IMG/VR virus record: IMGVR_UViG_3300029319_007025
Span: 1 to 62,818 of that record
Direction: 5' to 3' (one strand)
DNA: 62,818 nt
From: a virus
Taxonomy: Duplodnaviria > Caudoviricetes
Shown: in pieces, positions 31,896 through 53,671 of the stretch
Layout of the letters: each line of letters starts with the position of its first letter
Numbering within the stretch: position 1 is the stretch's first letter
The notes under the pieces: generated by a model
Told to the model about the DNA's origin: nothing
The model's database searches: none
The model's input: only the letters and a program-made list of their open reading frames with translations
Made by a program: the position numbers and the translations under genes

Positions 31896-32090
31896 TCGGT
31901 TGATGGCCCCGCATTTACTTAGCATTGTAATTGCATTTAACATCGGGCTAGCTATTGGCGCTGGCATTGCTTGGGGACTTGTCATGTACAAATGGGAGCC
32001 GGTCATTGGGGTCGAGTGTGAAAATTGTTGTTCCTTCTATGAAGGTGGACGCGGTCGCGATGTGGGCGATCTGTGAGGCAGGTTGGGGCC

Positions 32091-32438
32091 TCACATCTTC
32101 TTCTGACCTTTTATACAGAACTCGTGCAAGTGACGAGACAGATCGTTCCCTCCACCACTAAATTGCATTGCAGGAAACCATGCTTTGCAATGTCTGCACC
32201 AATGCTCATCTTTGTCCTTGTGATGACATACTTCTTCAATAGGTCGTCCAATACGTGTCGCTGTTTGTAAATACCCACGAGGATATGGGGGCTCGTCCTT
32301 TAGGTATTTGTTGACCATGTCACGTGAAAGACCGAAGCGTGTGGCAACCTGCGTTTTTGTGAGATCGGGATTTTGCTTTCTATATTTTTTTACTTTCTTT
32401 TGAAGCGCAACATGATCCGAGAATTTTAGTAATTTCAT
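32091..32438 (-). CDS. HTH plus zinc-finger-like protein
   Basis: LTKTQVATRFGLSRDMVNKYL HTH; CxxC and His/Cys cluster. Confidence 0.65.
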   Translation of the reverse strand: MKLLKFSDHVALQKKVKKYRKQNPDLTKTQVATRFGLSRDMVNKYLKDEPPYPRGYLQTATRIGRPIEEVCHHKDKDEHWCRHCKAWFPAMQFSGGGNDLSRHLHEFCIKGQKKM

Positions 32439-32896
32439 TCCGACGAAGAATGTTCCACATATTCGCGAACGATAGTCAAAAACTCATCAAACAAAACAGC
32501 AACATGGGGGGTATCCGTTTGCTTTGCAAATGGCGCACTAAACCTGTAGTCATTCATGTGGTGTCCAAATATAATATGGAGATGCGCCATTCTCAATGTC
32601 ACATAAATATTCTTTGTGCGTGTCTTATGTGTGACCGCTATGGGTATTAGCTCATCAACCAACCCGGCAACGCTGACATCATGCTCTGCTTGCTTTAGCT
32701 TTTTCAACGGGGTTGGATTCATTGCGTCCTGGCATTCAATCCAAAAACCAGGCAACCCTGTCACGTCTGACTCCTCTGCTTGCCGTGATTGAATAGAGCG
32801 TCTAATAACCTCTGCGTACTTTGGGAAGCTATCGCGCAACTTACGTGCTATTTGACGCTCGAACCTCTTCCCTTTATCCCGTTGCATTTTACTCAT
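32435..32896 (-). CDS. Holliday junction resolvase-like PD-(D/E)xK nuclease
   Basis: KGKRFER...SDV...WIEC; start reassigned to MSKMQRDKG overlapping the queD stop. Confidence 0.75.
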   Translation of the reverse strand: MSKMQRDKGKRFERQIARKLRDSFPKYAEVIRRSIQSRQAEESDVTGLPGFWIECQDAMNPTPLKKLKQAEHDVSVAGLVDELIPIAVTHKTRTKNIYVTLRMAHLHIIFGHHMNDYRFSAPFAKQTDTPHVAVLFDEFLTIVREYVEHSSSE

Positions 32897-33362
32897 TGCG
32901 ATGTGTACCCGGTTCATCTCCTGGTTCATATGTCGCGCTGTTCTTATCGTTCTCTCTGACCTCAATCTTTGTTATCCAGACACGGTGGTTTGTTTTCTTT
33001 GTAACCATTGCGTTTACTTTATTGTAAGCCATGTATGCTGTACCCTCCATGCCTACGTCGTCCCAAACCCGCAAAGCACAAGCGCCTTTCTTTTCTAATT
33101 CCGTGAATGTTTCAAGCAATGGGTCGTTGGCATCAAGCAGTAACGTGTGGTCAAACATATACTCTAACCATTCCTTCACGTCCTGAAGGTCACCAAAGTC
33201 CATTACAAAGCCATTCTTTGTGCGCGTGTTACAAGCAAACCAAAATGTAAAACTGCGACTATAGCCATGTATAAAAGCACAATGTCCATCATGCTGCCAA
33301 CGCCTATGGGCGCATGGCAAGTTGTTGAATGTTTTGGTTGAGCGATAAATTCCAAGTTCCAT
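32889..33362 (-). CDS. queD: 6-carboxytetrahydropterin synthase
   Basis: CAHR, HCAFIHGY, VMDFG, FDHTLL, VREN motifs. Confidence 0.93.
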   Translation of the reverse strand: MELGIYRSTKTFNNLPCAHRRWQHDGHCAFIHGYSRSFTFWFACNTRTKNGFVMDFGDLQDVKEWLEYMFDHTLLLDANDPLLETFTELEKKGACALRVWDDVGMEGTAYMAYNKVNAMVTKKTNHRVWITKIEVRENDKNSATYEPGDEPGTHRNE

Positions 33363-34979
33363 TTATAAATTCCCAGCATCAATGTGCAGACATACGTCTA
33401 ACAGATTACTTACATCAGCGGAGTGTGATATAACAAATACTATTTTGTCTTGTGACATTTCGGATAGCGCGTCGCTCACAGCATGAATACCCTCCCAGTC
33501 GAGGCTGTCGAATACCTCATCAAAGAACACGGTGCCTGCCGCGTATTGATTTGACCCTTGCGCTAATTCAGCTAACGCCAAAAGCATTGCTACATCAATG
33601 CGCCGACGCTGCCCTCCGCTCGATGCCTTGTATCCATAACCACCACCCGCACCATGTACGTGGATACTAATTGCATCGCTCACACCACCTGTTTTCTTTT
33701 CTTTATATGAACAAACCTCAAGCGACATATTGTTGGACGAAATACGTTTAAGCCATTGATTGGATAGTATTTGTAATCCGTTGAGCGCGTTGCCGAGTAT
33801 GTGGGCACGTATACCTTTCAGCCCCAACGTTTGCTCAGCGAGCTTCATAATCGTGACATCATATTCAAGTGTCTCAAGCGTTGCCGTATCGCTGTTCAAT
33901 TCGTTCTTTACTTCGAGTATGTCATTCTTCGTGTTCTTCAGTGTATCCATGAAGTGCTCTTTTGCATTTGCTGCTTCTTTTTTGCGGCCAAGCTTTTCAA
34001 GTTTTGAAGACAACGCTCTGCGCTCTGTTGAGACAGCTTCATTTATTTTTTGAATTTTCGTGCGAACCTTGTCTATCTTTACAGCGACAGCGCCTTGGTC
34101 GTTTGTAAGTTGTTCAAGTTCATCGTGTAGTTGTTTCTCTATAGGAGCAGCGAACTCTTTTGTTATTTGTTGCTCACACGTTGGACATGAATCCTTTGAA
34201 AGTAGCTTTAGTTTTTTTCTATTGACCGCAATTTGTGTAACCTGTTGTCCAGATAGTTCGCGAAGCGAAGCAAATGTTTTCTGCAACTTGTTGAGTTTCA
34301 ACTCACATTGCCTAATCAGATTTTCTGCTTCATCAATCGTTACTTGTGAGATGTCCTCATTGATATCTTGCTTTGCGAGTTTGATGGCATCCTTTGTATC
34401 GCTGAGCAGGTCCTTGTATTTCTTCAGCATTCGTTGGTTGAATTTTATATTTCTTTCAACTTCAGAGAACTCGTGTTCAAGTGTACGTTTCTCTGCTTTA
34501 CATTTCTTTAGTGCAGCATCAAACGAATCCAACCCCAAAAGATTCTCAAGCAAACGTTTGCGCTCTGCGTCCGTTGACATCGTGAAGTGACTCGCATCCT
34601 GTGACGAAAACACAGCACACTTCTTCCATACATCGAACGTGCCTATGCTTGCAGACAAACCGTCTTGTGCTTTTTTTGTGGTTGCGTATTTTGCAGGCGC
34701 AGGCTCCCACGATAATTTTGCGCGTGATCCTGCTGTGGTTGAGCGTGTTATCTTGAAACCTTCACGAGTTGTTATTGTCACGCTGCCCGCTGTATTGGGT
34801 CGCCAAGGTGACGTGCCGCGCAATGTCTTTCCCCAACACGCAAAAGCTATGGCCTCAATCAATGTTGACTTGCCGCTGCCGTTTGGACCTGTAACGAGAA
34901 CGATGCCGTTCTGTGGAAAGTTTATTGTTACTTCATCGTACGACATGAAGTTCCGAAGCTCTATGCTTTCAATGTTCAT
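33363..34979 (-). CDS. sbcC: SbcC/Rad50/gp46-like ATPase
   Basis: GPNGSGKS, CPTC hook, SGGQRRR, FFDEVFD, ISH. Confidence 0.95.
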   Translation of the reverse strand: MNIESIELRNFMSYDEVTINFPQNGIVLVTGPNGSGKSTLIEAIAFACWGKTLRGTSPWRPNTAGSVTITTREGFKITRSTTAGSRAKLSWEPAPAKYATTKKAQDGLSASIGTFDVWKKCAVFSSQDASHFTMSTDAERKRLLENLLGLDSFDAALKKCKAEKRTLEHEFSEVERNIKFNQRMLKKYKDLLSDTKDAIKLAKQDINEDISQVTIDEAENLIRQCELKLNKLQKTFASLRELSGQQVTQIAVNRKKLKLLSKDSCPTCEQQITKEFAAPIEKQLHDELEQLTNDQGAVAVKIDKVRTKIQKINEAVSTERRALSSKLEKLGRKKEAANAKEHFMDTLKNTKNDILEVKNELNSDTATLETLEYDVTIMKLAEQTLGLKGIRAHILGNALNGLQILSNQWLKRISSNNMSLEVCSYKEKKTGGVSDAISIHVHGAGGGYGYKASSGGQRRRIDVAMLLALAELAQGSNQYAAGTVFFDEVFDSLDWEGIHAVSDALSEMSQDKIVFVISHSADVSNLLDVCLHIDAGNL

Positions 34980-36177
34980 CTCCGCTTTCTCCTAAGAAAC
35001 GAGCGACAAGGTTTCGTATCCTTTCTCTCGCCTCTGGTTGAAATTCTTTATCCATGTACACATCGAGTTGGATTGTGTCCGTATAGTTTACAATCGCCTC
35101 CTCTAACGTCTCAGAGCTTTTTGTTTTCTCTGCCGTTTGTCGTGCTGTGTCTTCGCTTGTCTTTGAGGCATACAAAACTTCGCCGCTATGTATTACATCA
35201 GCAGTCATTGCTGCGTTGAGTAATTCATTTGCGAGTTCTATCTCTGTCTCACTGGCTTTGATACGTGCAAAGATCACGTTGTCTAAATCTGTTTCGCCTA
35301 TAAGATTCTTTTTCTTAGCGCCTTTCAAACTGCCTATATCATCCTTAGGTGTAATTGTGACAAACCTCGGGCCAGGAACCATACTGATTATACCTACACG
35401 TCTTTCCGCTTCGACGTGCTCATAGATCGCACCGTAGTTGAAACCTTCATTGCCCCAACCTGTAGGCACTAACGCTCCTGCTTGGATTATATTTATGTGG
35501 CGGTCGTCTTCGTGGTAATAGCCTTGCCACGACTTTGCGTTGTGCCAATGTCCAGCAAACGCTGCGCTTATGTCACAGTCATTACAGAGGTCGAGTAGTT
35601 TATCTTTTGTGATTGCTGTGTCTGAGTTTCGTAAGAAGCCAGGTGTTGAGTCATCAACCACGCCCGCGTGAAATGCAAGGAGCCTTGACGATACCCATGC
35701 CTGAGAGCCTGTTTCTGAAAGAGCGCGAACATGTTTGGTTAGCCATGTTGTACATTTACCCGACTGAAAAGGAATAGCAAAAAGCTGTTCCTCACCTTCT
35801 GTGATTACCGTTGGTTTGTTTATAATCGTAGCAAGATGCGTCAAGGGGCCGAGTGCGTTGTGATCTTCATGGTCGCTTGCTTGGTCATGGTTGCCTTGTA
35901 TTATAATTGTCTCAAGCTCAAGCTCTTTGCCGTATTGAATTATGTCTTGAGTGTAATACAGCATGGTCGGGCTAACGTTTGGGTTGTCGAATAGGTCGCC
36001 TAGTATGACAACATACTTTGCCTGTGGGCGTCGCTTTGCTGTTTCTTTGTATACATTACGCAGCGCAGAGAGCGTCAGTCGGCAACGTTCATTCACACCC
36101 GCGACATACCTGCCTCCATGACGTTTATGGTTGCCAATGTGTACGTCGCCAACAAATACGAAGGAACTACTCTGCAT
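34969..36177 (-). CDS. sbcD: SbcD/Mre11/gp47-like nuclease
   Basis: GDVH, GDLFD, GNHD, GHWH; adjacent to sbcC. Confidence 0.93.
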   Translation of the reverse strand: MQSSSFVFVGDVHIGNHKRHGGRYVAGVNERCRLTLSALRNVYKETAKRRPQAKYVVILGDLFDNPNVSPTMLYYTQDIIQYGKELELETIIIQGNHDQASDHEDHNALGPLTHLATIINKPTVITEGEEQLFAIPFQSGKCTTWLTKHVRALSETGSQAWVSSRLLAFHAGVVDDSTPGFLRNSDTAITKDKLLDLCNDCDISAAFAGHWHNAKSWQGYYHEDDRHINIIQAGALVPTGWGNEGFNYGAIYEHVEAERRVGIISMVPGPRFVTITPKDDIGSLKGAKKKNLIGETDLDNVIFARIKASETEIELANELLNAAMTADVIHSGEVLYASKTSEDTARQTAEKTKSSETLEEAIVNYTDTIQLDVYMDKEFQPEARERIRNLVARFLGESGDEH

Positions 36178-37111
36178 CTTTACTTACCCAGCCTAGTTGT
36201 TCGATGGCTTCATTATACGCTTTCTCTCCGCGACTACGCGGCTTGATAATACCTCGCTCTTTCGCATGGTCAAGAACCGACCATTGATTGTCGAAACCTT
36301 CCGCAAAGTTTAGACGCACCCTGCACTTTCTATAGGGAGGAGCCATGCGGTTCTTTGTTGCCAATACAGTCACATCTTTTGCTGTGTGTTCACCGTGCTC
36401 ATTCTTCACGGCTTTGCCGCCCATGATTTGTAGACGTAACGAAGCCAAGAACTTCATACCTTTACCGCCAGGTGTTGTTGTATTGTTACCAAATAACACT
36501 CCCATCTTTGTTCTTGTTTGATTGATAACAAGCAAAGCAACATTGTTATCATTTACTAACGTGCCTAAAGAGCGACACGCTCGGCCCATAAGACGGGCGC
36601 GTCCTGCGACAACCTCGCCACCAACAAGGCCATCCGTAAGTTCTGCTTTAGTAGGCGTTGCTGCAAGGCTGTCCCACGCAACAAGTACAGGACCTTGGAC
36701 ATCCTTCATTGATGTTAGCGTAGCATCAAGCATATCAAGAGCTTCTTCAAGATGATCAGGTTCAAGTAAAATCACCTTGCTCAGGTCAACGCCAAATGTC
36801 TCAGCACGTTCTGTGTCAAGTGCGTCCTCTGTTTCGACAATAACAGCAAGGCCGCCTTGTGCCTGTACGGATGCACAACATTGTAGCATGAGTGATGACT
36901 TGCCCCCGCCCTCCTCTGAGTACAGCTCCGTGATACGTCCGACAGGTAACCCGCCGCAACCTATAACGTAATTATCCACAGGCATAATACCTGTTGGGAT
37001 CACCTCGCGAATCTCAGAGCTAGGCCCGTCTGAAAGCATTCGCGCCGTCTTTGATGATTTCTTTTTTAGTTTTGATTGTATGCCTGCAAGCACACTTTCG
37101 TAGTTAGACAT
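36167..37111 (-). CDS. recA: RecA/UvsX recombinase
   Basis: GGLPVGRITELY..GGGKS, DSLAA, INQTR, TTPGG; start moved to ATG 37111 after GAGGGG. Confidence 0.95.
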   Translation of the reverse strand: MSNYESVLAGIQSKLKKKSSKTARMLSDGPSSEIREVIPTGIMPVDNYVIGCGGLPVGRITELYSEEGGGKSSLMLQCCASVQAQGGLAVIVETEDALDTERAETFGVDLSKVILLEPDHLEEALDMLDATLTSMKDVQGPVLVAWDSLAATPTKAELTDGLVGGEVVAGRARLMGRACRSLGTLVNDNNVALLVINQTRTKMGVLFGNNTTTPGGKGMKFLASLRLQIMGGKAVKNEHGEHTAKDVTVLATKNRMAPPYRKCRVRLNFAEGFDNQWSVLDHAKERGIIKPRSRGEKAYNEAIEQLGWVSKDAE

Positions 37112-37127
37112 GTTTCCCTCGCTGATG

Positions 37128-37252
37128 AAATAAGACACCTGATAACCCTGTGCCTACCTGTGGGTGTCTAAGTAAAAACAAAGCCAAATTACTTAGACAA
37201 TTTTAGTTCCCGCCCAAAGGAGAAAGCGTTGTACCAAAAAGCGGGAACCAAA
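37128..37252 (-). ncRNA. Candidate structured RNA in the ssb-recA intergenic region with an anti-RBS loop
   Basis: 12-bp stem 37252-37241/37213-37202, loop contains CGCUUUCUCCUUU; second 11-bp inverted repeat 37165-37175/37189-37199. Confidence 0.5.
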
Positions 37253-37254
37253 CT

Positions 37255-38109
37255 CTATACATCCCACTCGTCTTCTTCGTCGTCTTCAAGAAGGTCGGTG
37301 AGAGATGCGGTTGCACGTTTCTTGCCTTTCGTGGATTGTTTTGACTTTCGCTTTTGTTGTGTGCTTGCCGTGAGTTGTTTTGGTTCAATGATGATCTCAT
37401 CCTCTTGTGGGACGGACATTGAATTGTCAGGAGCTTCAGCGCCCATCCATGTTAGAACCTGCTCAAGGGAAGGTGGTGTGCAATACTTTTGCAGATCCCA
37501 TTGACGTTTGATAACGTCGAGATCTTCAACAGCGGAATCATTACGTGCAGCACGAACCTTATACTGTGTCTTCAACCCTTGACCTTCCCTGAGGATGATA
37601 ATGTCAAAGCCATCGTCTGATGGATTCGTAAAGTCGCCTCCATCTACATCGTCACGCATGATAGCGAGCAAACCTTGCCAAACCGTTTTGCCAAAACTTA
37701 TGATCTGCGGTTTAGATTGGTCGCCGCTTCTATCAATTACATTGGCGTAGATTCTTGCCTTCGGATAAAACTCACGCGCCTTTGCAGAATCAACCTGATT
37801 GCCTGAACGTTTCAGTTCATTTGCTAAATCACACAATGGGCATTTCTTTTTTTCCATCAAACGTGGACAGGCAAAGCGTTGTTTTGTGCCGTCAGGTCGT
37901 TCATAGAAATGCTCCTGCACGATAACAAATGGCGATGTCTGTTCACTGTCAGCAGGCAATGGCAGAAAACGAACAACGTTCTTACCCTCTTGCCATTTGT
38001 AAAAATCACCACCACCTACTTTTGTGGTTGCGCCCAATAGCGCGTCTTGTCTTTCGAGTTCAGCGATATCGAACCCTTTGTATACTTGTAAATTTGAACC
38101 TCTAGTCAT
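37255..38109 (-). CDS. Single-stranded DNA-binding protein, T4 gp32-like
   Basis: VRFLP, EHF...ACP...CPLC zinc site, GFDIII, acidic tail. Confidence 0.88.
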   Translation of the reverse strand: MTRGSNLQVYKGFDIAELERQDALLGATTKVGGGDFYKWQEGKNVVRFLPLPADSEQTSPFVIVQEHFYERPDGTKQRFACPRLMEKKKCPLCDLANELKRSGNQVDSAKAREFYPKARIYANVIDRSGDQSKPQIISFGKTVWQGLLAIMRDDVDGGDFTNPSDDGFDIIILREGQGLKTQYKVRAARNDSAVEDLDVIKRQWDLQKYCTPPSLEQVLTWMGAEAPDNSMSVPQEDEIIIEPKQLTASTQQKRKSKQSTKGKKRATASLTDLLEDDEEDEWDV

Positions 38110-38124
38110 TGCTCTTACCCTCTT

Positions 38125-38565
38125 CTAATTATTCATCGTTAGTGTTGGGTCACTCATCTCCGCACGAAGATGCGCCCCCAAACTTATCAACATTTCTTTC
38201 TTGGCGTGAAGTGCTTCACACCTTCCTCTTGCCTCTTGTTTGCCGGATTCGGCTTCGGCTAATATCAATCGTAGTTGCATTACCTCCTCATCTATCTCGA
38301 CAAGGTTGCTTAGTTTTGCCTCTGTGATTTTTTGACCTGCCTCCTCATGCTCCTGCCTGATATTGAGATACGCCGCAGCTCTCGCTTGTTCATACCTCAC
38401 TTTGCTTTGTAAGAACCTTCGCACTGCTTTGGCATACAATTCATTGAAATACGACAACTCGCTTGGCATTCTCGTGTAATGCTCATGCACCGTGGTCGTG
38501 GTAATATCAAGCGCCTCTTCTAGCAACTGTAAATTCTCTGCTCTTCTTTCTTTTTTACTCGTCAA
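38125..38565 (-). CDS. UvsY-like recombination mediator (coiled coil)
   Basis: Helical, KITEA and KKEMLISLGA motifs; next to ssb and recA. Confidence 0.6.
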   Translation of the reverse strand: MTSKKERRAENLQLLEEALDITTTTVHEHYTRMPSELSYFNELYAKAVRRFLQSKVRYEQARAAAYLNIRQEHEEAGQKITEAKLSNLVEIDEEVMQLRLILAEAESGKQEARGRCEALHAKKEMLISLGAHLRAEMSDPTLTMNN

Positions 38566-38655
38566 TTCAATTTCCTCTTTTCATCTCGGGCATTGCCCAC
38601 ATTTATTTATTATAAATTTGAGAACGTTTTAGCCCTTCTAAATATATTTTTTTCA

Positions 38656-41202
38656 TTATTTCATTTCTTCAAGCTCACCCCATTTGTAACCGATTTCACA
38701 ATCAACGGTAAGCGGCACATCGTTTGTCGCCCAACGTGTCATGAGATCTTTGACAGCACATATCAGCTCGTCCATGTGCGTTTCGTCGACTTCGAAAAGT
38801 AAACTGTCATGCACAGTCAAGACGAGCTTCGCGGGAAACTCTTCACGCAGTATCCAAGCAACACATCTTGCAAGCGACGCGAGGCAAAGATCACTTGCCG
38901 TTCCTTGCACAGGCGTATTCCAACTACCATTCTCCGCGCTCACGCGCACCTTGTCGTCCGCGTCGGCTATTCTAAACAACGGACGGACACGTCCTTTTTT
39001 TCCTTGCCATTGTGTCCATGTAACACCTGTCTTTCTCGCCTCGTACAGTTGGCCGTCACACCATGACTTGAGCTTAGGAAACTTTCCAAATATAGCGCGT
39101 CTAATATTGTCTGCCTCTGTCACAGAGCAATTGAGATTCTTACTCAACGTGAGGACAGACATGCCATACAGCAAGCCAAAGTTCACTGACTTTGCTTTCG
39201 TTCTGTGTTCCTTTGTCACGTCTTCAGGTGAAATGCCCCATGCCACGTTTGAAATCATCTCTGCCGTACGTTGATGATAATCTTTGCCTGATTGAAAGAT
39301 CGCCCGCATGGCATCGTCTTGTGACAACATAGCAGCGACCCTCAACTCTAACTGTGAGTAATCCAACTGCACAAGCACTGACCCTTTGTTTGCAACAAAA
39401 CAATTCCTCGCCATGCCTCCAAGGTTGTCAGCAGATGGACGTGGAACCTGTTGTAGGTTTGGATCTCTACAGCTTATGCGTCCACTACGCGCACCCGAAA
39501 GGTCGAACGAAGGATGGACGCGCCCATCGTCTCTAATGAATTTAGCGAAGCCCATTGCGTACGTCGAATGAAGTTTCGACAGTTTGCGGTATGCAAGCAG
39601 GTCTTCCAATGCCTGAACCTGTGATTCCTTGCTTGCGCGTTTCAACAATTTTACGAGCGTTTCTTTATCAGTCGATGGTTCGCCACTTTTTGTTTTTGAT
39701 ATCACGGGCATCTTATGTTGCTTATATAAATACTTTCTCACATCAAGCGTAGAGTTGAGATTGATGTCTGGATTGCTTGCATAGATGCGTCCAAGAACAT
39801 CACTCAACGAATCCTCTAATGCTATGCGAAAACTATCAACAGCATCGGCACTTGTCGCAACCCCCCAGCGTTCAACATATTCAATAGCAATAGCAGCAGG
39901 GCGAACCACACGTTTCCAAACCCTATGCAGCGACCTGTTCTCTTCAAGTTCGATCTCGAATACCTCACCAAGACGTGCTGTTGATATTGCATCTCTTCCG
40001 CAGTAACGGTCGCGAATTTCAGCAGGCAGCAAGCCATATGAATAGGCACCCACGTTATCTTTCATTGTACGCACAGCATCCACGCATTTCTTTGGGCCAA
40101 TGTTTCTCAATTCTTCGTCCGACGTCTTAGGTGATCTAGCAACTTTGATTGCGTTTTTCATTGCATTGTCCGCAATCTCTTTGCCTCCGCCCATGCCAAC
40201 CAACTCTTGCATGACACCCAAGCTGGCTTTTGATTCGGGTTCAAGTATTTTCCTTACAAGGCGCGTGTCCATATGTAACCCATCAACGACTGTACCATAG
40301 GCGCAGTACAGCGCGTTGCTATCAAATTTACCATTTTGTGCAACCTTGAGAACATCAGCGTCCTCCATCATGTCAAGCAGGTGTTCTCGTATCGCCGGAT
40401 CTTTCAATGCGATACCTGACCAGACATACGCATCGTCAAACGCTTTGCCTGTCACCGCTATTGAAATGATTTCAAAATCTTTATTGTGCTGAAGCCCGAC
40501 TGTCTCGCAATCGTAGCTTATCCACTCTGCTCGCTTCAATTTAGCAACAGCTCTTTTTGATTCTGCTTTACTTGAAATAAGCAAAGCTCTGCTGTTGCGA
40601 CTGCTCAACAATTTCAACTCTTCAAGCTCGACGTTTAGCGACCATTCCAAATCCTCTTCGAACCATTTAGCTAGGAAGCGATTATGCAATGCAGACACGG
40701 GGTCAATCAAAGTGAACACAGGTATGGTATCTTTTGTTATCCAACCAAAACCTTTGCGCGTTGATAGGTATGCCGTTCCTCGGCCAAGCAGCGCTGTTGC
40801 AGCCGCAGAGCCAAGAGCGAGTATGCGTTGTGGTTTTGTTTCGGCAATCGTCTGTGCAAGATAAGGGCGGCATGCTTCAAAAATTTTCGGGCGAAGGTTT
40901 GTGGAACCTGGTTTACATTTGATTCCATAATCCAACGCGATAGGACCTTGCCAATGTTTCAACAACATGCGGCGCAGCTTCGCACCTGTTGTGCTTACAA
41001 AGGGCCTGCGCTTTGCGTCATCCATAATGCCTGGATAGCCACCTACGATAAGCAATCCTCCAGGTGTGCCTTCTGCCGACATACAAACCGTCTTTGCTTG
41101 TTCATGCAGAGGACACAACATGCAACCCGAATTGACAAGCCGCGGTTGGACAATATCAATCGCTGATAATTGCGGCTCCTCATATAATTGAAGTTTCTTC
41201 AT
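38656..41202 (-). CDS. polA: Family A DNA polymerase with N-terminal UDG-like domain and 3'-5' exonuclease
   Basis: DCET exo I, NGKFD, DYSQLELR (A), RTKAKSVNFGLLYG (B), TVHDS (C); N-terminal CxxC...Cx14C family-4 UDG-like domain. Confidence 0.96.
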   Translation of the reverse strand: MKKLQLYEEPQLSAIDIVQPRLVNSGCMLCPLHEQAKTVCMSAEGTPGGLLIVGGYPGIMDDAKRRPFVSTTGAKLRRMLLKHWQGPIALDYGIKCKPGSTNLRPKIFEACRPYLAQTIAETKPQRILALGSAAATALLGRGTAYLSTRKGFGWITKDTIPVFTLIDPVSALHNRFLAKWFEEDLEWSLNVELEELKLLSSRNSRALLISSKAESKRAVAKLKRAEWISYDCETVGLQHNKDFEIISIAVTGKAFDDAYVWSGIALKDPAIREHLLDMMEDADVLKVAQNGKFDSNALYCAYGTVVDGLHMDTRLVRKILEPESKASLGVMQELVGMGGGKEIADNAMKNAIKVARSPKTSDEELRNIGPKKCVDAVRTMKDNVGAYSYGLLPAEIRDRYCGRDAISTARLGEVFEIELEENRSLHRVWKRVVRPAAIAIEYVERWGVATSADAVDSFRIALEDSLSDVLGRIYASNPDINLNSTLDVRKYLYKQHKMPVISKTKSGEPSTDKETLVKLLKRASKESQVQALEDLLAYRKLSKLHSTYAMGFAKFIRDDGRVHPSFDLSGARSGRISCRDPNLQQVPRPSADNLGGMARNCFVANKGSVLVQLDYSQLELRVAAMLSQDDAMRAIFQSGKDYHQRTAEMISNVAWGISPEDVTKEHRTKAKSVNFGLLYGMSVLTLSKNLNCSVTEADNIRRAIFGKFPKLKSWCDGQLYEARKTGVTWTQWQGKKGRVRPLFRIADADDKVRVSAENGSWNTPVQGTASDLCLASLARCVAWILREEFPAKLVLTVHDSLLFEVDETHMDELICAVKDLMTRWATNDVPLTVDCEIGYKWGELEEMK

Positions 41203-42133
41203 CGCTTTCTCCTTTCATTCTTATAAGATGTTTTTTATCAACTTCATTTAGTAACCATTCCTTTTTTACATCGCCAGGATCTTTGCCAGGAGGTAGCTTT
41301 ACAAAGTCAGCAGTCACACCTTCAAGCATCAGGCGGGAGGCGAATGTATAACCCTCCTCCCATGCGTCACCATCCAACGCGATAACAAGAGGGCGCTTTG
41401 CTTTTCTCAAAATTTCAAACTGTGCATGGCTTGGTTTGCCTAATACAGCGATTGCTTTGTTCTCATACGGCAACACATCGAAGATGCCCTCCATCACCAA
41501 TAAAGGTTCGTCTGTATGTATATCAAGCAACCATTTTTGAAATATAATTTCGCCACGCTTCATTCCGTATGGATACAGATATTTTCTCAAGGCTTTGTTC
41601 GTCCAATCGCGACCAACCCAGCCAAGCCATTTGCCGTCAGGTGTATCACGTATTGGAATGATAACCCTGTTCTCATGCTTTCCCCTTGTACATGCGCCAA
41701 TGCCATAACGTTGCCAACTTGCTCGACCATATCCACGTCCTCTTAGATAACGTCTCGCTGGTGCAAGTGAAATTGCATTGAGCCCTGGCTCCATCCATAA
41801 AGGTATGTACTCTGAAGGTTTCTCAACTTCCTGTTTATCATTTGCTTCTTTTTGTTCGCTAATGCGCCGTGGCATATCCTCGTCATATGCAACGCCAACC
41901 TTACCTTTGGTTTGACAGCGGTGACACATATAGAAGCCGCTATTCGCATTCACTCCAAATGACTGTCGCCGATCTCGTGTTCCCATGACGCTTTCGCAGA
42001 ATGGGCAATTCGATCTTATCCAACCTGTGGCACCTGGTTTCATTGTAAGTAATAAAGTTTGAACGTGCTCGCTTGACACATTGTCCTCCAGTAATCCTAA
42101 TTCTTTTCTTGTGCGTGGAATCAAAAGGGCCAT
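41180..42133 (-). CDS. dnaG: DNA primase (zinc finger plus Toprim)
   Basis: CPFC...CHRC, EGIFD, LDGDA, KDP; start uncertain. Confidence 0.92.
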   Translation of the reverse strand: MALLIPRTRKELGLLEDNVSSEHVQTLLLTMKPGATGWIRSNCPFCESVMGTRDRRQSFGVNANSGFYMCHRCQTKGKVGVAYDEDMPRRISEQKEANDKQEVEKPSEYIPLWMEPGLNAISLAPARRYLRGRGYGRASWQRYGIGACTRGKHENRVIIPIRDTPDGKWLGWVGRDWTNKALRKYLYPYGMKRGEIIFQKWLLDIHTDEPLLVMEGIFDVLPYENKAIAVLGKPSHAQFEILRKAKRPLVIALDGDAWEEGYTFASRLMLEGVTADFVKLPPGKDPGDVKKEWLLNEVDKKHLIRMKGESDEETSII

Positions 42134-43425
42134 CCTTCACGAATCAATGGAGCGACACGTCCCTTCTCAAACTCCTGTGGCAAAGGCCCGATGTCTTCAC
42201 CGCTACGTCCATAACGATTTTTAGCGACACGGAACATCATTGTTGCTCCTTCGTCCCTTGGGTTCAATGTGATAACAAGATCAGCGGTTCGCGGGATGCC
42301 CATAGAACCTGCCGTGTGTTGTGAGTCGATCTTCTTTGTGCGTTTATCTTGCGCCTCTGCTTTTGATTGCGCCGCTGTCCAAACCCAACACTTTTTATCC
42401 GCAGCAAAAGCACGTAGCTGTTCCGCGATTGAAGTCAGCTCTTCGTGTTTCATTTTCTTGCTTGGCTCATGTAGCAACGCAGCATAGTCAACACATACAA
42501 TGTCTATTTTCTTGCCATAGTTCTCCTCTTCATCAGCGACCCAATCACGTATGTCCGAAACCGTCACAGCATGTGGCGTGAAGTATTTCACCGTACAAAA
42601 GCCAAGCAGGTTTTGTTCTTCAAGCTCTTGCAGTCGTGTCCGAGCTTTCTTCGCTGCCCTGCTGTTATTCAAAATATCTTCCCAAGCTAGGTCGGTGAGG
42701 TTTGAAACGATACGAGCGTAGACATATTCTTCGCCTAGCTCAAGCGTTGCATAAGCAACGTTAAGTTTATTTGATATTGCATCACAAGCCGTATGAGATA
42801 ACGACATTGATTTACCTGCACCCGTTGGCCCAACGTATACACCTAAACTGCCACGTTCTAATCCGCCTCCCAATGCAGCATCAAGTTCGTCAACACCAGT
42901 CGGAAGTTTTCGTATATTACGCAACTCCTCAATCTGATCCATGATTGCAGGTGACAACATTGTGCCAAGTGTTGATTCAACAGCGCCAAGACGGTACGCC
43001 TTGTTTAGCATATCCCCAACGGCAGACAGATCCTCGCTATTCGTGAATGCCTTCAGCCCTTGATCCAATGCTTCCTTTTCCATGCGTCTTCGCAACACAG
43101 GAACAAGCTCTTGCAGAACATCCTCTGAACTGACCGTGGGTTCGTCTTGTTCAATTTCATAAAGAAATTCTACAACCGCTTCGTATTCATCCTCACTAAA
43201 CTTGCCTTTATCCAACCGACGCCTTGCGCGTTGTTTCACAATGGTAGGCGAGCCAGGTGGTTTCTTGAATGACCTGCAAAGCGATGCAACCAAACTTGCG
43301 CCTTCATCCTGAAAGCTAGCAGGGTCAATCTGTTTGATTATACGCTTGTAGAATTTAGGACGTGTGACCAACAGCGCAGCAACGATACGTTCGAACTCTG
43401 AATCTAATCCATAGTGTGTGCTCAT
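42121..43425 (-). CDS. dnaB: Replicative helicase, DnaB/T4 gp41-like
   Basis: GPTGAGKS, TLE, VDYA, WTAAQ, KNRYG; SD AAGGAGG before 43425. Confidence 0.93.
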   Translation of the reverse strand: MSTHYGLDSEFERIVAALLVTRPKFYKRIIKQIDPASFQDEGASLVASLCRSFKKPPGSPTIVKQRARRRLDKGKFSEDEYEAVVEFLYEIEQDEPTVSSEDVLQELVPVLRRRMEKEALDQGLKAFTNSEDLSAVGDMLNKAYRLGAVESTLGTMLSPAIMDQIEELRNIRKLPTGVDELDAALGGGLERGSLGVYVGPTGAGKSMSLSHTACDAISNKLNVAYATLELGEEYVYARIVSNLTDLAWEDILNNSRAAKKARTRLQELEEQNLLGFCTVKYFTPHAVTVSDIRDWVADEEENYGKKIDIVCVDYAALLHEPSKKMKHEELTSIAEQLRAFAADKKCWVWTAAQSKAEAQDKRTKKIDSQHTAGSMGIPRTADLVITLNPRDEGATMMFRVAKNRYGRSGEDIGPLPQEFEKGRVAPLIREGWPF

Positions 43426-43565
43426 CGTCTCCCTCCTTGTGAGCAACATGAATTGCACTGATGCTGGTTGCTTTGTTGTTGCGCTACTTTGTTAAAACCA
43501 TCTGTGTAATGTGCGCAACCACCGCACAGAATCGCTAGTGTTATTGTTATTAGTATTTGCTTCAT
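43422..43565 (-). CDS. Small putative lipoprotein
   Basis: AAGGAGAAAGCG-ATG start; MKQILITITLAILCGGC lipobox-like leader. Confidence 0.6.
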   Translation of the reverse strand: MKQILITITLAILCGGCAHYTDGFNKVAQQQSNQHQCNSCCSQGGRR

Positions 43566-43575
43566 CGCTTTCTCC

Positions 43576-44760
43576 TTACCAAACGTACTCTCCTCCTCGG
43601 ACAAGTTCATTTATTTTTTGTTGTGTTTTAGCTGCTGCTCGCTTTGCTTGCGAGTATGCTTCTTCCCAGCCATGTGGAAACCATTTTTGTTCAAGTGAGC
43701 GGGCTGAAACCATGACATCATCAGGCAACGTCAACGCTTGAAATGCTTCACGCCGCAGCCCGTCGTATTTGCGGAACAGTTTTTTATGTTGTGCCGTGTA
43801 ATATAATTGACCCCCGCTATAATTATTCATCTCACGTCCGAACCATCCCTTATGCTTTGTTATTCGACTCGCTGAAAAGACCCAACCTACAGGCGGGAAC
43901 TTTTTACTTGGGTCGCTTTTTTCATATGAATACCCTTCCAGCCATTTATCAATCGACCACGTGACCCATGAGATGGGCGAGATATCGTATTCGATAAAAA
44001 GGTCAACCGCTGAAGTAAGCACATTCCAATGCTTCGACTTTTGTATATCGCCTCTGCTGAATGCATAGCATTTCTTTTTATAACGAGCGGCGATTCCTTT
44101 TCTGTATGCGACTGAAAGAATGTTCACCTGATCCAATGTACAGCAATCCTCTTCAGGTATTTTCGGCGGGGGCGGAATCTTTGCTACACCGACTTGCGAG
44201 ATGCTGGGATACGGCATGTCCCGAAGTAAATCCAAAACATCTTGGCGCAGCTTGCTCGCGCCTTTGTTTCTTGTATAAGAAACTTTATTATTTATATTAA
44301 TATTTATATGGTGGTCAGTTTGATTAGCAATGGTATGCGGTTTGATTTTCTTTTTACGTCCTGCGCCTTCACGCTTCCCGCCTCTTGTAGGCAATTCAAA
44401 TATTCTTTTTTTCAAAGCAGCAGGTATGTTGATATTTTTACTTCGATAGTCGCCGTAGACGATTCTTGCATACCTTTTCTTTTTGTCTGAAAAATGTTCG
44501 CACTCAATCCAACCAAGATTTTTTATCAAACCAACGCTTGTCAATTTGGTACACGCTCTCAATACCTGTTGCCGCGATAAACCTTTGGCAGCGGCAATCG
44601 TGTTTGCTGTCGCGAAACTTACGCCGTCAAAGTCGCGCCTCCATATGTAACCCAACCACACTTGGAATGCTGTTGGTCCTAATGCTTTTGAAACGTCGCT
44701 TGGTTTGCAAGAATATGTTCCCGCAACTTTCGGGCATACAACGCCGAGTTCTTTTTTCAT
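43576..44760 (-). CDS. Winged-HTH protein, candidate replication initiator
   Basis: N-terminal TIAAAKGLSRQQVLRACTKL...GLI, RGGKREGAGRK motif; heads the replication operon. Confidence 0.5.
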   Translation of the reverse strand: MKKELGVVCPKVAGTYSCKPSDVSKALGPTAFQVWLGYIWRRDFDGVSFATANTIAAAKGLSRQQVLRACTKLTSVGLIKNLGWIECEHFSDKKKRYARIVYGDYRSKNINIPAALKKRIFELPTRGGKREGAGRKKKIKPHTIANQTDHHINININNKVSYTRNKGASKLRQDVLDLLRDMPYPSISQVGVAKIPPPPKIPEEDCCTLDQVNILSVAYRKGIAARYKKKCYAFSRGDIQKSKHWNVLTSAVDLFIEYDISPISWVTWSIDKWLEGYSYEKSDPSKKFPPVGWVFSASRITKHKGWFGREMNNYSGGQLYYTAQHKKLFRKYDGLRREAFQALTLPDDVMVSARSLEQKWFPHGWEEAYSQAKRAAAKTQQKINELVRGGEYVW

Positions 44761-44859
44761 GTCATGTATGTATTATGAATCCGAACCGACTTTGTTCCAT
44801 TGCAATGTATCGCCACGAATAAATACACAGGTGGGCGGCACATACATATACACGCCCCG

Positions 44860-45040
44860 CCACATACATATACGCGCACCAAATCAACCCATATATTCGC
44901 TTTGAAAAGAGCACTTTTTTTCAATAAAAATCCACGGATCGAAAAAACCCAATGATTCCAAATACATACAAACCAAGAAAAATGCATAATAAGCTAGACA
45001 CTCATGAGGGTTTTCACTAATATAAACACATGGAACGAAC
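44860..45040 (+). promoter_or_regulatory. Early control region, copy A (A-tracts plus TAGACA-17-TAATAT promoter)
   Basis: -35 at 44995-45000, -10 at 45018-45023; diverged duplicate of 55198-55385. Confidence 0.75.
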
Positions 45041-45329
45041 AAACAAAGCATTGAACAAAGATCACAAAGACGTAGCAATTGAAGCATTGAAAAATGCAGC
45101 ATGGGCATATCGTACAGGTCGCGGCGAAACCTTCGCAATCGAAGCAAAGTTGCAGGCACAAAAAGACGCAGCACACGGAGCGGGGTTTGCGCGGGAAGCA
45201 ATCGTAATGGGACACGCGCTGTCATGCATTCAATACACAGCAATGGCAATTGAAGACGGTGACATCGAATATGATTCGGCAGAACGTCGCTTCGAGAAAA
45301 TGATCTCAAAAATCCAACGAATCAAATAG
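45030..45329 (+). CDS. Early hypothetical protein (possibly leaderless)
   Basis: ATG lies 6 nt downstream of the -10 box with no SD. Confidence 0.65.
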   Translation: MERTNKALNKDHKDVAIEALKNAAWAYRTGRGETFAIEAKLQAQKDAAHGAGFAREAIVMGHALSCIQYTAMAIEDGDIEYDSAERRFEKMISKIQRIK

Positions 45330-45355
45330 ACACAGGGTAAACGCTAGTTTATAAA
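45327..45355 (+). promoter_or_regulatory. Repeated early promoter TAGACA-cagggtaaacgctaNNN-TATAAA
   Basis: 17-nt spacer; one of four near-identical copies. Confidence 0.8.
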
Positions 45356-45377
45356 CAAACACACAGGGAGAAAGCAA

Positions 45378-45668
45378 ATGAATAACACAAACAACACAAT
45401 GGCAAACATTATCAAACAACTCGATGGTTTGAACGATACCGATCTTATTGAATTGAATGCTCAAATTATTCGTAAACTAAAAACAATTCGCGCAACACAA
45501 GCTGCCGAACTAAAAAGCACATTGAAAGTGGGCGACAAAGTTACTTGGAATTGTCGCCAAGGTTCAAAAGAAGGCGTCATTTACAAAGTCAATCGTAAAA
45601 AGGCCATTGTTGAAGTCAATGGTGAAGGATGGAACGTACCTTTAGGAATGCTAAAAAAGGTCGTTTAG
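45378..45668 (+). CDS. Early protein with helical N-terminus and SH3/KOW-like C-terminus
   Basis: LKVGDKVTW...GVIYKVNRKKAIV...WNVP; GGGAGAAAGC RBS. Confidence 0.7.
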   Translation: MNNTNNTMANIIKQLDGLNDTDLIELNAQIIRKLKTIRATQAAELKSTLKVGDKVTWNCRQGSKEGVIYKVNRKKAIVEVNGEGWNVPLGMLKKVV

Positions 45669-45672
45669 TAAA

Positions 45673-45701
45673 TAGACACAGGGTAAACGCTAATATATAA
45701 A
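45673..45701 (+). promoter_or_regulatory. Repeated early promoter
   Basis: TAGACACAGGGTAAACGCTAATATATAAA. Confidence 0.8.
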
Positions 45702-45722
45702 CAACACACAAGGACAAAGCAA

Positions 45723-45941
45723 ATGAGCAAAACAAAGTACACATGGAACGAGATCAATTCAGCGCTGGGAAGTTTGAAATATTCAACACAGCGAATTCTG
45801 AAAGTCATGGGTGCTTTGCGACAAGGCAGCATCATGCATGGCACGAGCGAATACACGTGGAGCGAGATCAATTCGGCGCTGTTCGTTGGTTGCAAGATGA
45901 GCCCTGCAAACATAGCGAAGGTCCTACGGGCGTTGAGATAA
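45723..45941 (+). CDS. Early protein made of two internal repeats
   Basis: YTWNEINSAL...KVMGALR / YTWSEINSAL...KVLRALR. Confidence 0.7.
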   Translation: MSKTKYTWNEINSALGSLKYSTQRILKVMGALRQGSIMHGTSEYTWSEINSALFVGCKMSPANIAKVLRALR

Positions 45942-45974
45942 ACAAACAAACAAACAAACACAGGGAGAAAGCAA

Positions 45975-46343
45975 ATGAGTAATACAACATATTCGATAGA
46001 GGAAATGAAAGCGCGACGAAAAGCAACAAGGGCAAAGGTAGCAAGACATAATCGAGCACAAAAAGCAGCGATGCTACGTGAGGTGCTTGAAGCAAAAGCT
46101 AAAGCAGCACGTGCAAAGAGAGACGAATTATTTCAGCAATTCAAACAAGCACAGTTGGCAGTGAACGAATTAAACAATGAGCTAATCGAGCACGATGATT
46201 TGGCATTTGTAGTAAGCGAAGTTGAGCGCGCTGCATATTGGAAATTGGAATATGTCACGTCAGACATGAAAGAGCGATGCCAAAAATACAACCGCCGAGT
46301 TGAGGATTTGGAAGATTCATTTGAAATTCTCGCCGAAGCGTAA
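45975..46343 (+). CDS. Early coiled-coil hypothetical protein
   Basis: (AAAC)5 leader plus GGGAGAAAGC RBS. Confidence 0.7.
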   Translation: MSNTTYSIEEMKARRKATRAKVARHNRAQKAAMLREVLEAKAKAARAKRDELFQQFKQAQLAVNELNNELIEHDDLAFVVSEVERAAYWKLEYVTSDMKERCQKYNRRVEDLEDSFEILAEA

Positions 46344-46371
46344 GCAAAACAAACAAAGGGAGAAAGCAAAA

Positions 46372-46845
46372 ATGAACAAATTAGAAAAGTCAGCGCACGA
46401 CCGCAAGGTGTGTGACCCATGGAAATGTCCACACGAAGAACATGCGCTTCCACAAGCGTTTACAATCCACAAAAAGTACACACGAATAGAAGGTGGCAAC
46501 GATAAGCGATACCCACAAGCACATGAGAGCGTGGCGTATCGTGAATGGTTCACGCTCAGAGCAATCATTGATGGAAAAATGGAACGACAACCTTTCCGTG
46601 TAACACGTTTAGCACCTGACATGCGAGCCGAACGCTTACGGGCGCAGCGATTAGGTTGGAAGCTTTGTTATTTTGATGACCCGTACTTTATCGAACACCT
46701 AGACAACATTGGTAAACATAATGAAGAATGGAAACCTTTGAAGGTTTGCGAAGCGTGGGCGGGCGCTCATCATGAAGCAACGCTCTTCTTCAAACGTTCA
46801 ATCAGCGACGATGCAAGAAAAGCATTTGTAAAAGTAAGCAGGTAG
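46372..46845 (+). CDS. Early hypothetical protein
   Basis: GGGAGAAAGCAAAA-ATG at 46372. Confidence 0.65.
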   Translation: MNKLEKSAHDRKVCDPWKCPHEEHALPQAFTIHKKYTRIEGGNDKRYPQAHESVAYREWFTLRAIIDGKMERQPFRVTRLAPDMRAERLRAQRLGWKLCYFDDPYFIEHLDNIGKHNEEWKPLKVCEAWAGAHHEATLFFKRSISDDARKAFVKVSR

Positions 46846-46928
46846 GTCTTGAAAGTGTGTAGCAGGTTCGCTACACGTGAAACAATAACGGTGCCGAGTA
46901 TTCGGCACATTACAAAGGAGACGCAGAG

Positions 46929-47714
46929 ATGCGACGAAAAGCGAAAAAAGAAACAGCAAAAAAAACAACAACAAGCAAAGCAAAAAAGACAGAGCGCGTG
47001 AGCATGCCCTTACGTACAATGGCACAAGTCAATCGTGTTATGGCATCGACCATGCGCTTACAAACAAAAGTACAGAAATGGAAAGGTGAGCCAGCGGTGA
47101 TAGCGGCAAAACATCTCAACAAAGCAGCGAAGGCATTGGAAAGTTGCTCAATCGTATTGTCAGAAGGAGAGGGCGACATTATCACAAAAGTCAGAGCAGC
47201 ATTGAGTGTAGGTCAGCAAGTGCAATTCAAAGACGACAACAGGTATCTTGCTTTTAGTACGCTCGATAAAAAAGCCCTTATCATTTTAGACGTAATTCAA
47301 TACCTGAATGACAAAGGACGAATGGTTGTAGAATACAAGGTTGGCTTGGCTGATAAAGCGAGCGAGATGATTATGCTTGTAGCAAAGACACAGGTCAAAG
47401 CATTGCCAGCGAATCAATACGTGGATGGTGCAGGTGTAGCGTGGAACGTTGAGCAAGATGAAGATGACGAGGATGATGAGCTAGACACAAGCTTTAATGT
47501 AGACGAATTCGAAGACGAGGGAGAAGAAGAAAATGCCAATGAAGAAACGAGCGAAGCAAGTGAAGATAGCGAGAGCGAAGAAGCAGCGGAAGCATCTGAT
47601 GAAGAGGAAGAAGAGGACTTCAATTTTGATGATGAAGATGAGGAAGAAGAGCAGGTGCACAAGCTCTCAGAAGTTCCACGCGGAGTACGACGCCTACGAG
47701 CTAGACGCGGTTAG
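46929..47714 (+). CDS. Protein with basic N-terminus and long Asp/Glu-rich tail
   Basis: SD AAGGAG; about 65-aa acidic tract near the C-terminus. Confidence 0.7.
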   Translation: MRRKAKKETAKKTTTSKAKKTERVSMPLRTMAQVNRVMASTMRLQTKVQKWKGEPAVIAAKHLNKAAKALESCSIVLSEGEGDIITKVRAALSVGQQVQFKDDNRYLAFSTLDKKALIILDVIQYLNDKGRMVVEYKVGLADKASEMIMLVAKTQVKALPANQYVDGAGVAWNVEQDEDDEDDELDTSFNVDEFEDEGEEENANEETSEASEDSESEEAAEASDEEEEEDFNFDDEDEEEEQVHKLSEVPRGVRRLRARRG

Positions 47715-47786
47715 GTAAAATGCTTACAATCAAAGAGGAAGGCATATCGCCAAAGTATGCCTTCCTTTTTTTACAAGGAGAAAGCG

Positions 47787-49046: not shown

Positions 49047-49057
49047 GGAGGCGAGCA

Positions 49058-50494: not shown

Positions 50495-50994
50495 TGCAAA
50501 TATTCATCATTGACAAAGATCCGGTTCAAGCAGCGCGGGTTCAATGCGATAAGCACGTAGTCAAGATGCCGCTTGAGTGTGCTCAAATGCTCTGTACGGC
50601 ATTGCATCAATACGACGTTGCAGACATTCCGTATAAGACAAGCCACGCAAGACATCCATGTACGCTTTGGGTGACAGGTTCGCGTAGCAATTTCTTTTGG
50701 TTGGTCGTACATGGTTTGGTGCTGTGTTCAGAGTATACGATACGATACAAACGTCTGCACAAGTCACAAGAAGTCATTGAGTGGTGTATGAGCAAAGCAC
50801 ATCATATTCCTGAAGGCGCATTAACAGAGCCGCCACAAGCTGTGCCTGATGAATTCAAGCGAGACAATGTGATAACGGCGTACCGTGCTTATTATCATTC
50901 AAAAGTTTCATTCGCCAAATGGAAACGAAACAAGCCAACGTGGTGGCAAGGAGAAAGCTATGAAGAAGAAACCAACGGTCAAGAATTTTCCTAA
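50494..50994 (+). CDS. denV: Pyrimidine-dimer DNA glycosylase (endonuclease V family)
   Basis: CDKHVVKMPLECAQML, HPCTLW, EYTIRY, AYRAYY. Confidence 0.85.
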   Translation: MQIFIIDKDPVQAARVQCDKHVVKMPLECAQMLCTALHQYDVADIPYKTSHARHPCTLWVTGSRSNFFWLVVHGLVLCSEYTIRYKRLHKSQEVIEWCMSKAHHIPEGALTEPPQAVPDEFKRDNVITAYRAYYHSKVSFAKWKRNKPTWWQGESYEEETNGQEFS

Positions 50995-53587: not shown

Positions 53588-53608
53588 TAAAGAGGTACGT
53601 CCTCATAT

Positions 53609-53624
53609 CGTTCCACGTGAAACG
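53609..53624. promoter_or_regulatory. parS-like palindrome CGTTCCACGTGAAACG
   Basis: Inner 14 nt match the consensus TGTTNCACGTGAAACA; intergenic. Confidence 0.6.
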
Positions 53625-53671
53625 TTGAGCAGGAGCGCGTTGAGAGCGGCACATGACATAAGGAGAGAGGT

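Follow-up and report, generated by a model that had tools for sequence, protein, structure and literature searches.

A hairpin after the ssb gene of an uncultured marine phage carries in its loop a sequence complementary to the phage's own ribosome binding site motif

Why should a phage carry, immediately after the stop codon of its ssb gene, a hairpin whose loop is antisense to ribosome binding sites (RBSs) of its own genes? The question is raised by an IMG/VR virus record of 62,818 bp, which was analysed as a whole and is called the window below. The record is classed as linear and 61% complete. Its two termini share an exact direct repeat of 98 nt (1-98 = 62719-62816), which suggests circular assembly of a probably complete genome with a size of about 62.7 kb. 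The phage is uncultured, the sequencing runs that contain the sequence are marine or seawater metagenomes, none of the 16 listed being an RNA run, and no close cultured phage was found, the best matches being 31-33% identical for SSB and 25-30% identical for PolA. A simple ORF map divides the genome into a structural (late) block of 42 genes on the + strand (1-32076), a replication block on the minus strand (32091-44760), all genes between 32 and 44.7 kb being encoded on that strand, and a block of early and auxiliary genes on the + strand (45378-62199). Within two large late genes a unit of 261 nt is found three times in diverged form (65-72%; 22330-22590, 24039-24299 and 24300-24560); it probably encodes a domain that is repeated in tail-fibre-like proteins.

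The replication block encodes, on the minus strand throughout, a UDG-exonuclease-PolA fusion (polA, 38656-41202; Pfam), a gp32-like SSB of 284 aa in the ORF list with the acidic tail DDEEDEWDV (ssb, 37255-38109; Pfam PF08804, E 4e-14), a RecA-like protein whose gene starts with ATG 37111 behind the Shine-Dalgarno (SD) sequence GAGGGA (36167-37111; Pfam PF00154, E 4.5e-55), a metallophosphoesterase (34969-36177; Pfam) and an SbcC-like protein (33363-34979; PHROGs). The intergenic region between polA and gene 38565 (38541-38706) is A/T-rich, includes TATAAT and may provide a promoter for the unit of 38565 and ssb; it is also a hot spot of variation in related contigs, which show several short deletions (38555-38566 and 38654) and, in runs X3 and X6, loose ends.

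The ssb stop codon, TAG, occupies 37257-37255 on the minus strand, and the hairpin, HP1, starts 2 nt further on. In both the minimum free energy (MFE) and the centroid folds of the minus-strand RNA, a 5' arm UUUGGUUCCCGCUU (37239-37252) pairs with a 3' arm GGGCGGGAACUAAA (37202-37215) and encloses a loop of 23 nt (37216-37238), which was read directly from the sequence as well as from the folds. A preliminary description of this DNA had reported a stem of 12 bp; the predicted folds contain this stem, in which one internal pair is G-U, and lengthen it next to the loop by two U-G pairs, giving 14 bp with three G-U pairs in all. The preference for the minus strand that had been claimed at the same time is found as well. 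On the minus strand the RNA reaches -22.3 kcal/mol (z -3.69), a value equalled by none of 200 shuffles, and the same region read as + strand RNA attains only 8 contiguous bp and -14.6 kcal/mol (z -2.49; 5 of 200 shuffles as good), a preference that depends on the internal and the two terminal wobble pairs.

HP1 is followed by a second hairpin, HP2 (37165-37199, minus), which has an A/U-rich stem of 11 bp and a 13-nt loop, UUUGGCUUUGUUU, and a helix of 5 bp (37267-37263 with 37164-37160) surrounds both hairpins, an arrangement absent from the preliminary description. The whole two-hairpin element of 121 nt folds at -41.3 kcal/mol (z -4.32). The HP2 loop (37176-37188, minus) resembles CUUUAUUGGUUUGU, the loop of a post-ssb hairpin in relatives (about 4814-4826 in locus L005), the stems being different. 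UUUGG occurs four times within 37185-37250 and could mark a protein-binding loop, for example for SSB itself.

The sequence CAACGCUUUCUCCUUU that had been noticed in the HP1 loop lies at 37231-37216, and the 3' part of the loop is the pyrimidine-rich CGCUUUCUCCUUU (37228-37216, minus), 27 nt past the ssb stop codon. Most nucleotides of this anti-motif are predicted to be unpaired (>0.87), with the exception of two C residues (0.02) in a mini-helix of 2 bp, and the cost of opening the anti-motif is 3.2 kcal/mol, which is unchanged when 401 nt of context are folded.

CGCUUUCUCCUUU is the exact reverse complement of the polA leader AAAGGAGAAAGCG (41203-41215, minus), which directly precedes ATG 41202. 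The exact 13-mer AAAGGAGAAAGCG is present at two sites only, this leader and, read on the + strand, the HP1 loop (37216-37228), where it is followed by TTG at 37229; when up to two mismatches are allowed, it is found at 9 sites against 2.23 expected. GGAGAAAGC has 12 exact copies in the window, 11 of which are RBSs located 1-4 nt before an ATG, all at 34-58 kb and all pointing along the local genes; the twelfth is that in the HP1 loop. The spacing to the start codon is equal in the loop copy, which reads GGAGAAAGC-g-TTG on the + strand, and in the polA leader, which reads GGAGAAAGC-g-ATG. The genes preceded by the motif are non-structural, namely polA, the SbcC-like gene, those for two AAA ATPases and a DUF7192 protein, and six for small or unknown proteins.

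When pairing was counted as contiguous nucleotides of the loop against 78 start regions, the counts given in the preliminary description were reproduced. The best predicted target is the polA leader, with 13 nt plus the UG of AUG, followed with 12 nt each by the leaders of an ORF for 47 aa starting at 43565 (43566-43578, minus) and of an AAA ATPase gene starting at 47787 (47774-47786, +). The remaining motif leaders pair over 9-11 nt: 11 nt at 34979 (the SbcC-like gene, leader 34983-34995, minus), 57069, 50960 and 55784, 10 nt at 57948, and 9 nt at 45378, 45975, 46372, 55405, 46929 and 51252. The motif had not been noticed at the starts of structural genes, and none of the 42 genes of the late block pairs with the loop over more than 6 nt. 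The complement of the start codon in the loop is imperfect, CAA instead of CAU.

The 36 non-late genes have the lower duplex energies (Mann-Whitney P = 0.025). Of 12 leaders with the motif or a near-motif that were tested, 10 have an estimated net energy between -7.6 and -15.6 kcal/mol; the estimate is unfavourable for the motif leaders at 34979 (+1.7), that of the SbcC-like gene in spite of its 11-nt match, and at 50960 (+2.7); the accessibility estimate behind these values is crude, since duplexfold sometimes entered stem residues, inflating opening costs of 9 kcal/mol. The ssb and recA leaders have 4 contiguous nt and net energies of -3.7 and 0.0 kcal/mol, respectively. Cis action on either of these two leaders was considered and is unlikely at 4 contiguous nt and 0 to -4 kcal/mol.

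Two observations concern the first early genes. A one-mismatch form of the motif, GGACAAAGC-aa-ATG, lies at 45712-45727 (+) inside the nominally intergenic 306 nt of 45669-45974 and points to an unlisted small + strand gene from 45723, where the greedy ORF map chose the antisense ORF 45665-45961. The first small early protein (45378-45668, +; 96 aa, with a motif RBS) resembles, below the Pfam threshold (E 0.004; 18 bits, cut-off 27), a Tudor-like domain and a phage ProQ C-terminal-like domain. If this resemblance is real, a chaperone that binds RNA hairpins would have a bearing on HP1 and HP2.

A pyrimidine-rich loop might happen to mirror an SD-rich leader, and multiple testing is large here (78 start regions and a whole genome). 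Chance was evaluated by counting sense-strand sites exactly antisense to any 11- to 13-mer of the start regions (-20 to +3). HP1 is the sole sense-strand site in the window that is antisense over at least 13 nt to any of the 78 start regions; at the level of 12 nt two further sites appear, both within coding sequence, and these chance matches speak for coincidence. In shuffled co-oriented intergenic DNA (25 regions, 1909 nt, 3000 shuffles) a 13-nt match is obtained with P = 0.011, a value that gives no credit for the position in a loop, that of the locally strongest hairpin, or for the match to a multi-gene consensus, and that is modest for a feature picked out by an unguided reader. The statistics are moderate, the match is unlikely to be due to chance, and coincidence appears a most improbable explanation of the loop.

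A blastn-short search with 37140-37275 found no extended similarity elsewhere in the window except the 13-mer, and HP1 is therefore not a recent segmental duplication; an inversion scar was rejected on the same ground. The tetramer CTCC is found on the sense strand at 0.42 of expectation, and a depletion specific to anti-SD (aSD) sequences was dropped as an interpretation because TCCC (0.32), CCCT (0.46), GGGA (0.45) and AGGG (0.53) are equally depleted. Upstream of the late gene 9968 (9908-9967, +), an aSD-like CCUCCUU (9944-9950) is placed between GGGGAG (9931-9936) and GGGGAGG (9953-9959). The MFE structure pairs it with the upstream decoy at a z of only -0.4, and it could be a local translational switch of this gene.

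Since the + strand of the loop presents a perfectly formed RBS and start codon, as in the other 11 copies, its origin from an RBS cassette is parsimonious. The cassette might even be at work on that strand, so that an antisense transcript would be translated from TTG 37229 into a protein of 91 aa (37229-37504, +, in the ORF list), antisense to the 3' end of ssb; a real gene at this place had been named beforehand as the result that would speak against a regulatory loop. AAAGGAGAAAGCG and the TTG are indeed spaced exactly as at polA, SD, spacer and start codon have the spacing usual in this genome, and an open frame of 91 codons follows. Antisense runs of at least 83 codons that are open from the 3' end of a gene in this frame occur in only 5 of 58 genes, which is in favour of a gene; that they do occur makes the ORF itself weak evidence. 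Codon usage gives the ORF a log-likelihood per codon of -0.12, which is more than 3 sd lower than that of the 78 genes (0.23 +/- 0.11) and also below the average of same-frame antisense open stretches (-0.04 +/- 0.09, n=103). Its translation has a run of Ser and a Phe/Cys-rich stretch, as expected when the acidic tail and the Lys-rich linker of SSB are read in antisense, and the ORF has no Pfam match. A scan for the sigma-70-type consensus found no + strand site between 36552 and 37675, the nearest one, at 37675, being downstream. The surrounding 32-44.7 kb hold minus-strand genes exclusively, and the hairpin is weaker on the + strand. The ORF was thus judged spurious, and translation from the loop is very unlikely.

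The preliminary description had proposed a trans-acting RNA derived from the ssb 3'-UTR, that is, a discrete and stable sRNA that would act on all GGAGAAAGC leaders as an early-to-late switch. The anatomy invoked for it stands, namely the fold, its strand, the accessible anti-motif and the class-specific pairing; the same anatomy would serve an anti-RBS element embedded in an mRNA. Furthermore, phages with gp32-type SSBs typically have abundant ssb message, which was counted in favour of an sRNA. What did not stand is the RNA's 3' end. The HP1 stem is followed by AUUGUCU and HP2 by CCCACAGG, neither of which is a U tract, and a terminator scan of 32000-46500 found no intrinsic terminator at 37160-37255. 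HP1 resembles a Rho-independent terminator in having a stable G+C-containing stem just past a stop codon and differs from it in its loop of 23 nt (instead of 3-8 nt) and in the absence of a U run, whereas canonical terminators are present elsewhere in the phage, at 47733-47770 (+, 15-bp stem, short loop, U7) and at 32072-32095. With no U tract behind either hairpin in a phage that possesses such terminators, a terminated small RNA is not expected, the hairpin with a U tail that forms the 3' end of a terminator-bearing 3'-UTR sRNA being absent, and a 3'-UTR-derived sRNA is not the natural reading. HP1 probably acts as part of the mRNA instead.

Other searches also speak against a discrete sRNA. 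No promoter-like site was found on the minus strand inside the ssb 3' end, and none of 4227 Rfam families was matched when the whole window was run through cmscan with gathering thresholds, not even c4 (RF01695), a phage RNA made from the same transcript as its target; a tRNA scan of the window was empty. The early genes on the + strand have a GCAAAUG variant, with which the loop matches over 9-11 nt only, and the hairpin lies in the replication module, outside the late transcripts, so that a late timing would be unexplained. A discrete sRNA, a narrower form of the reading preferred below, is therefore quite improbable, and the early-to-late switch is pure conjecture. As for the terminator at 47733-47770, it ends 4 nt ahead of the RBS motif of gene 47787, so that this gene must either be reached by read-through or possess a start signal of its own.

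A promoter-like 11-mer, TAGGCACAGGG (37146-37156, minus), lies upstream of recA and is found, identical and in the same position, in four related loci (L002-L005; 4836-4846 in L005). It is one mismatch from TAGACACAGGG, which heads four repeated promoter-plus-leader units, and is thus probably a promoter element for recA. These units, which were found by a repeat search, are 53 nt long (45327-45379, 45673-45725, 55735-55787 and 57019-57071) and consist of TAGACACAGGGTAAACGCTA, then TATATAAAC, an A/C-rich leader, the RBS motif and ATG; like a sigma-70 promoter, they read TAGACA, 17 nt, TATAAA. Another repeat family, 137 nt long, is present at 44905-45041 and 55246-55382.

A profile search yielded 65 related loci, in the nearest of which ssb is 48% identical, and in no collection searched was a relative with a higher SSB identity found. 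No usable relatives were obtained by megablast of 36000-42000 against phages, by searches with ssb (viral, metagenome and genome contigs) or RecA (viral contigs), or by searches with P0003 (metagenome contigs) or the 20-nt promoter repeat (viral contigs), and blastn of 37112-37275 against phages gave only matches with E of 2 or more. The region downstream of ssb was folded in 29 of the 65 loci, and HP1 is absent from all 29. The pattern of the HP1 arms with a free loop had no match in viral contigs. Its sole match in genome contigs is an unrelated perfect palindrome with another loop in a MAG, which was regarded as chance, and the possibility of HP1 as a mobile hairpin was discarded.

The nearest loci, L002-L005, are true relatives (ssb 48%, RecA 62% identical). 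In these, the ssb stop codon is directly followed by an HP2-like hairpin, partly alignable with that of the window (TCTAAG..AAT, TTGGCTTT), and then by the identical TAGGCACAGGG, which indicates that HP1 is about 57 nt of extra sequence in the lineage of the window. GGAGAAAGC is present as one copy in two of these four records and is absent from the other two, compared with 12 copies in the window. The class of motif leaders and the anti-motif hairpin thus appear to be present or absent together, a single contrast that agrees with a link between them. In runs X3 and X4, which belong to the likely source study, the hairpin region is identical to the window (record 11 of X4 covers 37119-37401 with 0 differences), and X5 has no contig over it. 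Contigs of the seawater run X6 match the window only up to 37164 or from 37132 and are unlike it beyond. They were set aside as close relatives without HP1 because only 37132-37164 (33 nt) is common, and they may derive from other phages having just this promoter-like segment in common. The TAGGCACAGGG region has the appearance of a mosaic boundary with a conserved element, either a promoter or a junction.

HP1 and HP2 might be ordinary structural hairpins that end the ssb cistron, as an mRNA 3' stabiliser, an RNase processing site or a weak attenuator before the promoter-like element of recA, and the loop would then be an inert inverted RBS cassette acquired by illegitimate recombination at a mosaic junction. 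A post-ssb stem-loop is predicted in many of the 29 folded loci (e.g., L002-L005, L007/L009, L012, L016/L017, L024/L025 and L030), where no comparison with shuffles accompanies the folds; HP1 is lineage-specific extra sequence, the ends of the X6 matches suggest a mosaic junction, RBS cassettes recur on both strands of the genome as short inverted repeats (I2, D10 and D13), and neither a terminator nor conservation is seen. On the other hand, an inert copy matching at 13 of 13 positions, with a correctly spaced start codon, should decay, and no known mechanism puts a cassette of 16 nt precisely into a loop bracketed by a stem of 14 bp. The motif alone is common to HP1 and the other leaders, their flanks being dissimilar, and 23 nt is an unusually large loop if the hairpin serves structure alone, the canonical terminators of this phage having short loops. 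A hairpin with an inert loop would account for the lineage specificity and the missing terminator but not for the intact match, its place in the loop or the bracketing stem; it is the main alternative, which we regard as somewhat unlikely.

Our preferred reading, to which we assign a probability of about 0.4, is that an anti-RBS loop embedded in the mRNA represses GGAGAAAGCG-type leaders in cis or in trans. HP1 folds stably and preferentially on the gene strand, is exactly complementary to a leader, is specific for one class of leaders and can pair with them at a feasible thermodynamic cost; every step after this ability to pair is what we infer. HP1 would be a hairpin in the gene-sense transcript, located between ssb and recA in a 3'-UTR or intercistronic region, with its loop single-stranded. 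As ssb mRNA accumulates, the loop would pair with the segment comprising the SD sequence, the spacer and the start codon of GGAGAAAGCG-type leaders, the best candidate targets being polA, the ORF at 43565 and the ATPase gene at 47787. The pairing might be intramolecular on a polycistronic mRNA of the replication module or might occur in trans from full-length or processed ssb message, and it would block binding of the 30S subunit and possibly provide RNase III with a duplex substrate. The SD sequences of SSB and RecA, two proteins required in large amounts, are different (GAGGG type), and both would escape. The outcome would be dosage control, in which SSB is kept high and the enzymes are kept low, and not so much a temporal switch. 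Judging from the size of the ribosome footprint, terminating ribosomes would transiently open the 5' arm, the ssb stop codon being 2 nt from the stem.

The regulatory reading is based on one sequence and is plausible by analogy with close mechanistic precedents. Points that weigh against it are the perfectly formed RBS and start codon on the + strand, CAA in place of CAU, the lack of U tracts and hence of a predicted 3' end, the unfavourable net energies at 34979 and 50960, a strand preference that depends on three wobble pairs, and the modest P value. A stronger version of it, in which the most abundant replication message of a lytic marine phage would show a loop that acts as a "universal anti-RBS" and titrates the phage's own 11 GGAGAAAGC leaders, is unlikely; if true, it would represent an RNA-only, self-directed translational shut-off or dosage switch in the role that RegA and RegB have in T4. 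Class-wide control of phage early-gene translation is exerted by proteins in T4, the RegA repressor and the RegB nuclease, and the phage antisense RNAs known to us control single operons. If the HP1 loop works as predicted, it would add a third route, in which one short sequence embedded in an mRNA recognises a shared leader motif. If the prediction fails, HP1 would be an ordinary intercistronic hairpin with a curious passenger. A limited literature search found no description of a class-wide, self-directed anti-RBS element in a phage.

There are several known systems with which HP1 can be compared. In the 3'-UTR of S. aureus icaR mRNA, an anti-SD sequence pairs with the SD sequence in cis or in trans, which blocks ribosome loading and forms a substrate of RNase III (PMC3868564). 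Like icaR, HP1 has a pyrimidine-rich and predicted-accessible anti-SD motif in an untranslated stretch past a stop codon, within an mRNA rather than in a terminated sRNA (PMC3868564). The icaR motif, 7 nt long, targets its own SD sequence, whereas HP1 does not match the SD sequence of ssb and is complementary to the leaders of other genes, a class of 11, with a match of up to 13 nt that includes the spacer and part of the start codon (PMC3868564). Pairing within the same mRNA as in icaR would involve 4 nt of the ssb leader at a net energy of -3.7 kcal/mol; the polA leader offers 13 nt and is possibly on a separate transcript.

The c4 RNA of phages P1 and P7 has complementary sequences borne in loops, which pair around an RBS and block translation (PMC12197685). 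HP1 is similar to c4 in that a phage RNA displays an anti-RBS sequence in a hairpin loop, although c4 controls one operon, that of the antirepressor, in the immunity of temperate phages, and HP1 has another structure and many predicted targets (PMC12197685). Class recognition is found in RNAIII and the Rsa sRNAs of S. aureus, where C-rich (UCCC) anti-SD motifs in hairpin loops are directed against the SD sequences of several mRNAs, as the HP1 loop is predicted to be against a class of SD sequences (PMC2790875). These bacterial RNAs are independently transcribed, terminated and dependent on short seeds, while HP1 is embedded in a phage mRNA and its 13-nt match extends into the spacer (PMC2790875). 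Finally, in B. subtilis reporters, pyrimidine-rich aSD-like sequences located hundreds of nt from an RBS inhibit initiation and promote decay (PMC12697547). HP1 would likewise be a pyrimidine-rich aSD-like element that pairs with an RBS from within an mRNA, with the difference that the polA RBS is about 4 kb upstream of HP1 and that a transcript shared by the two is putative (PMC12697547). If the preferred reading is true, HP1 would provide an example from nature of the long-range anti-SD repression that has recently been measured in these reporters (PMC12697547).
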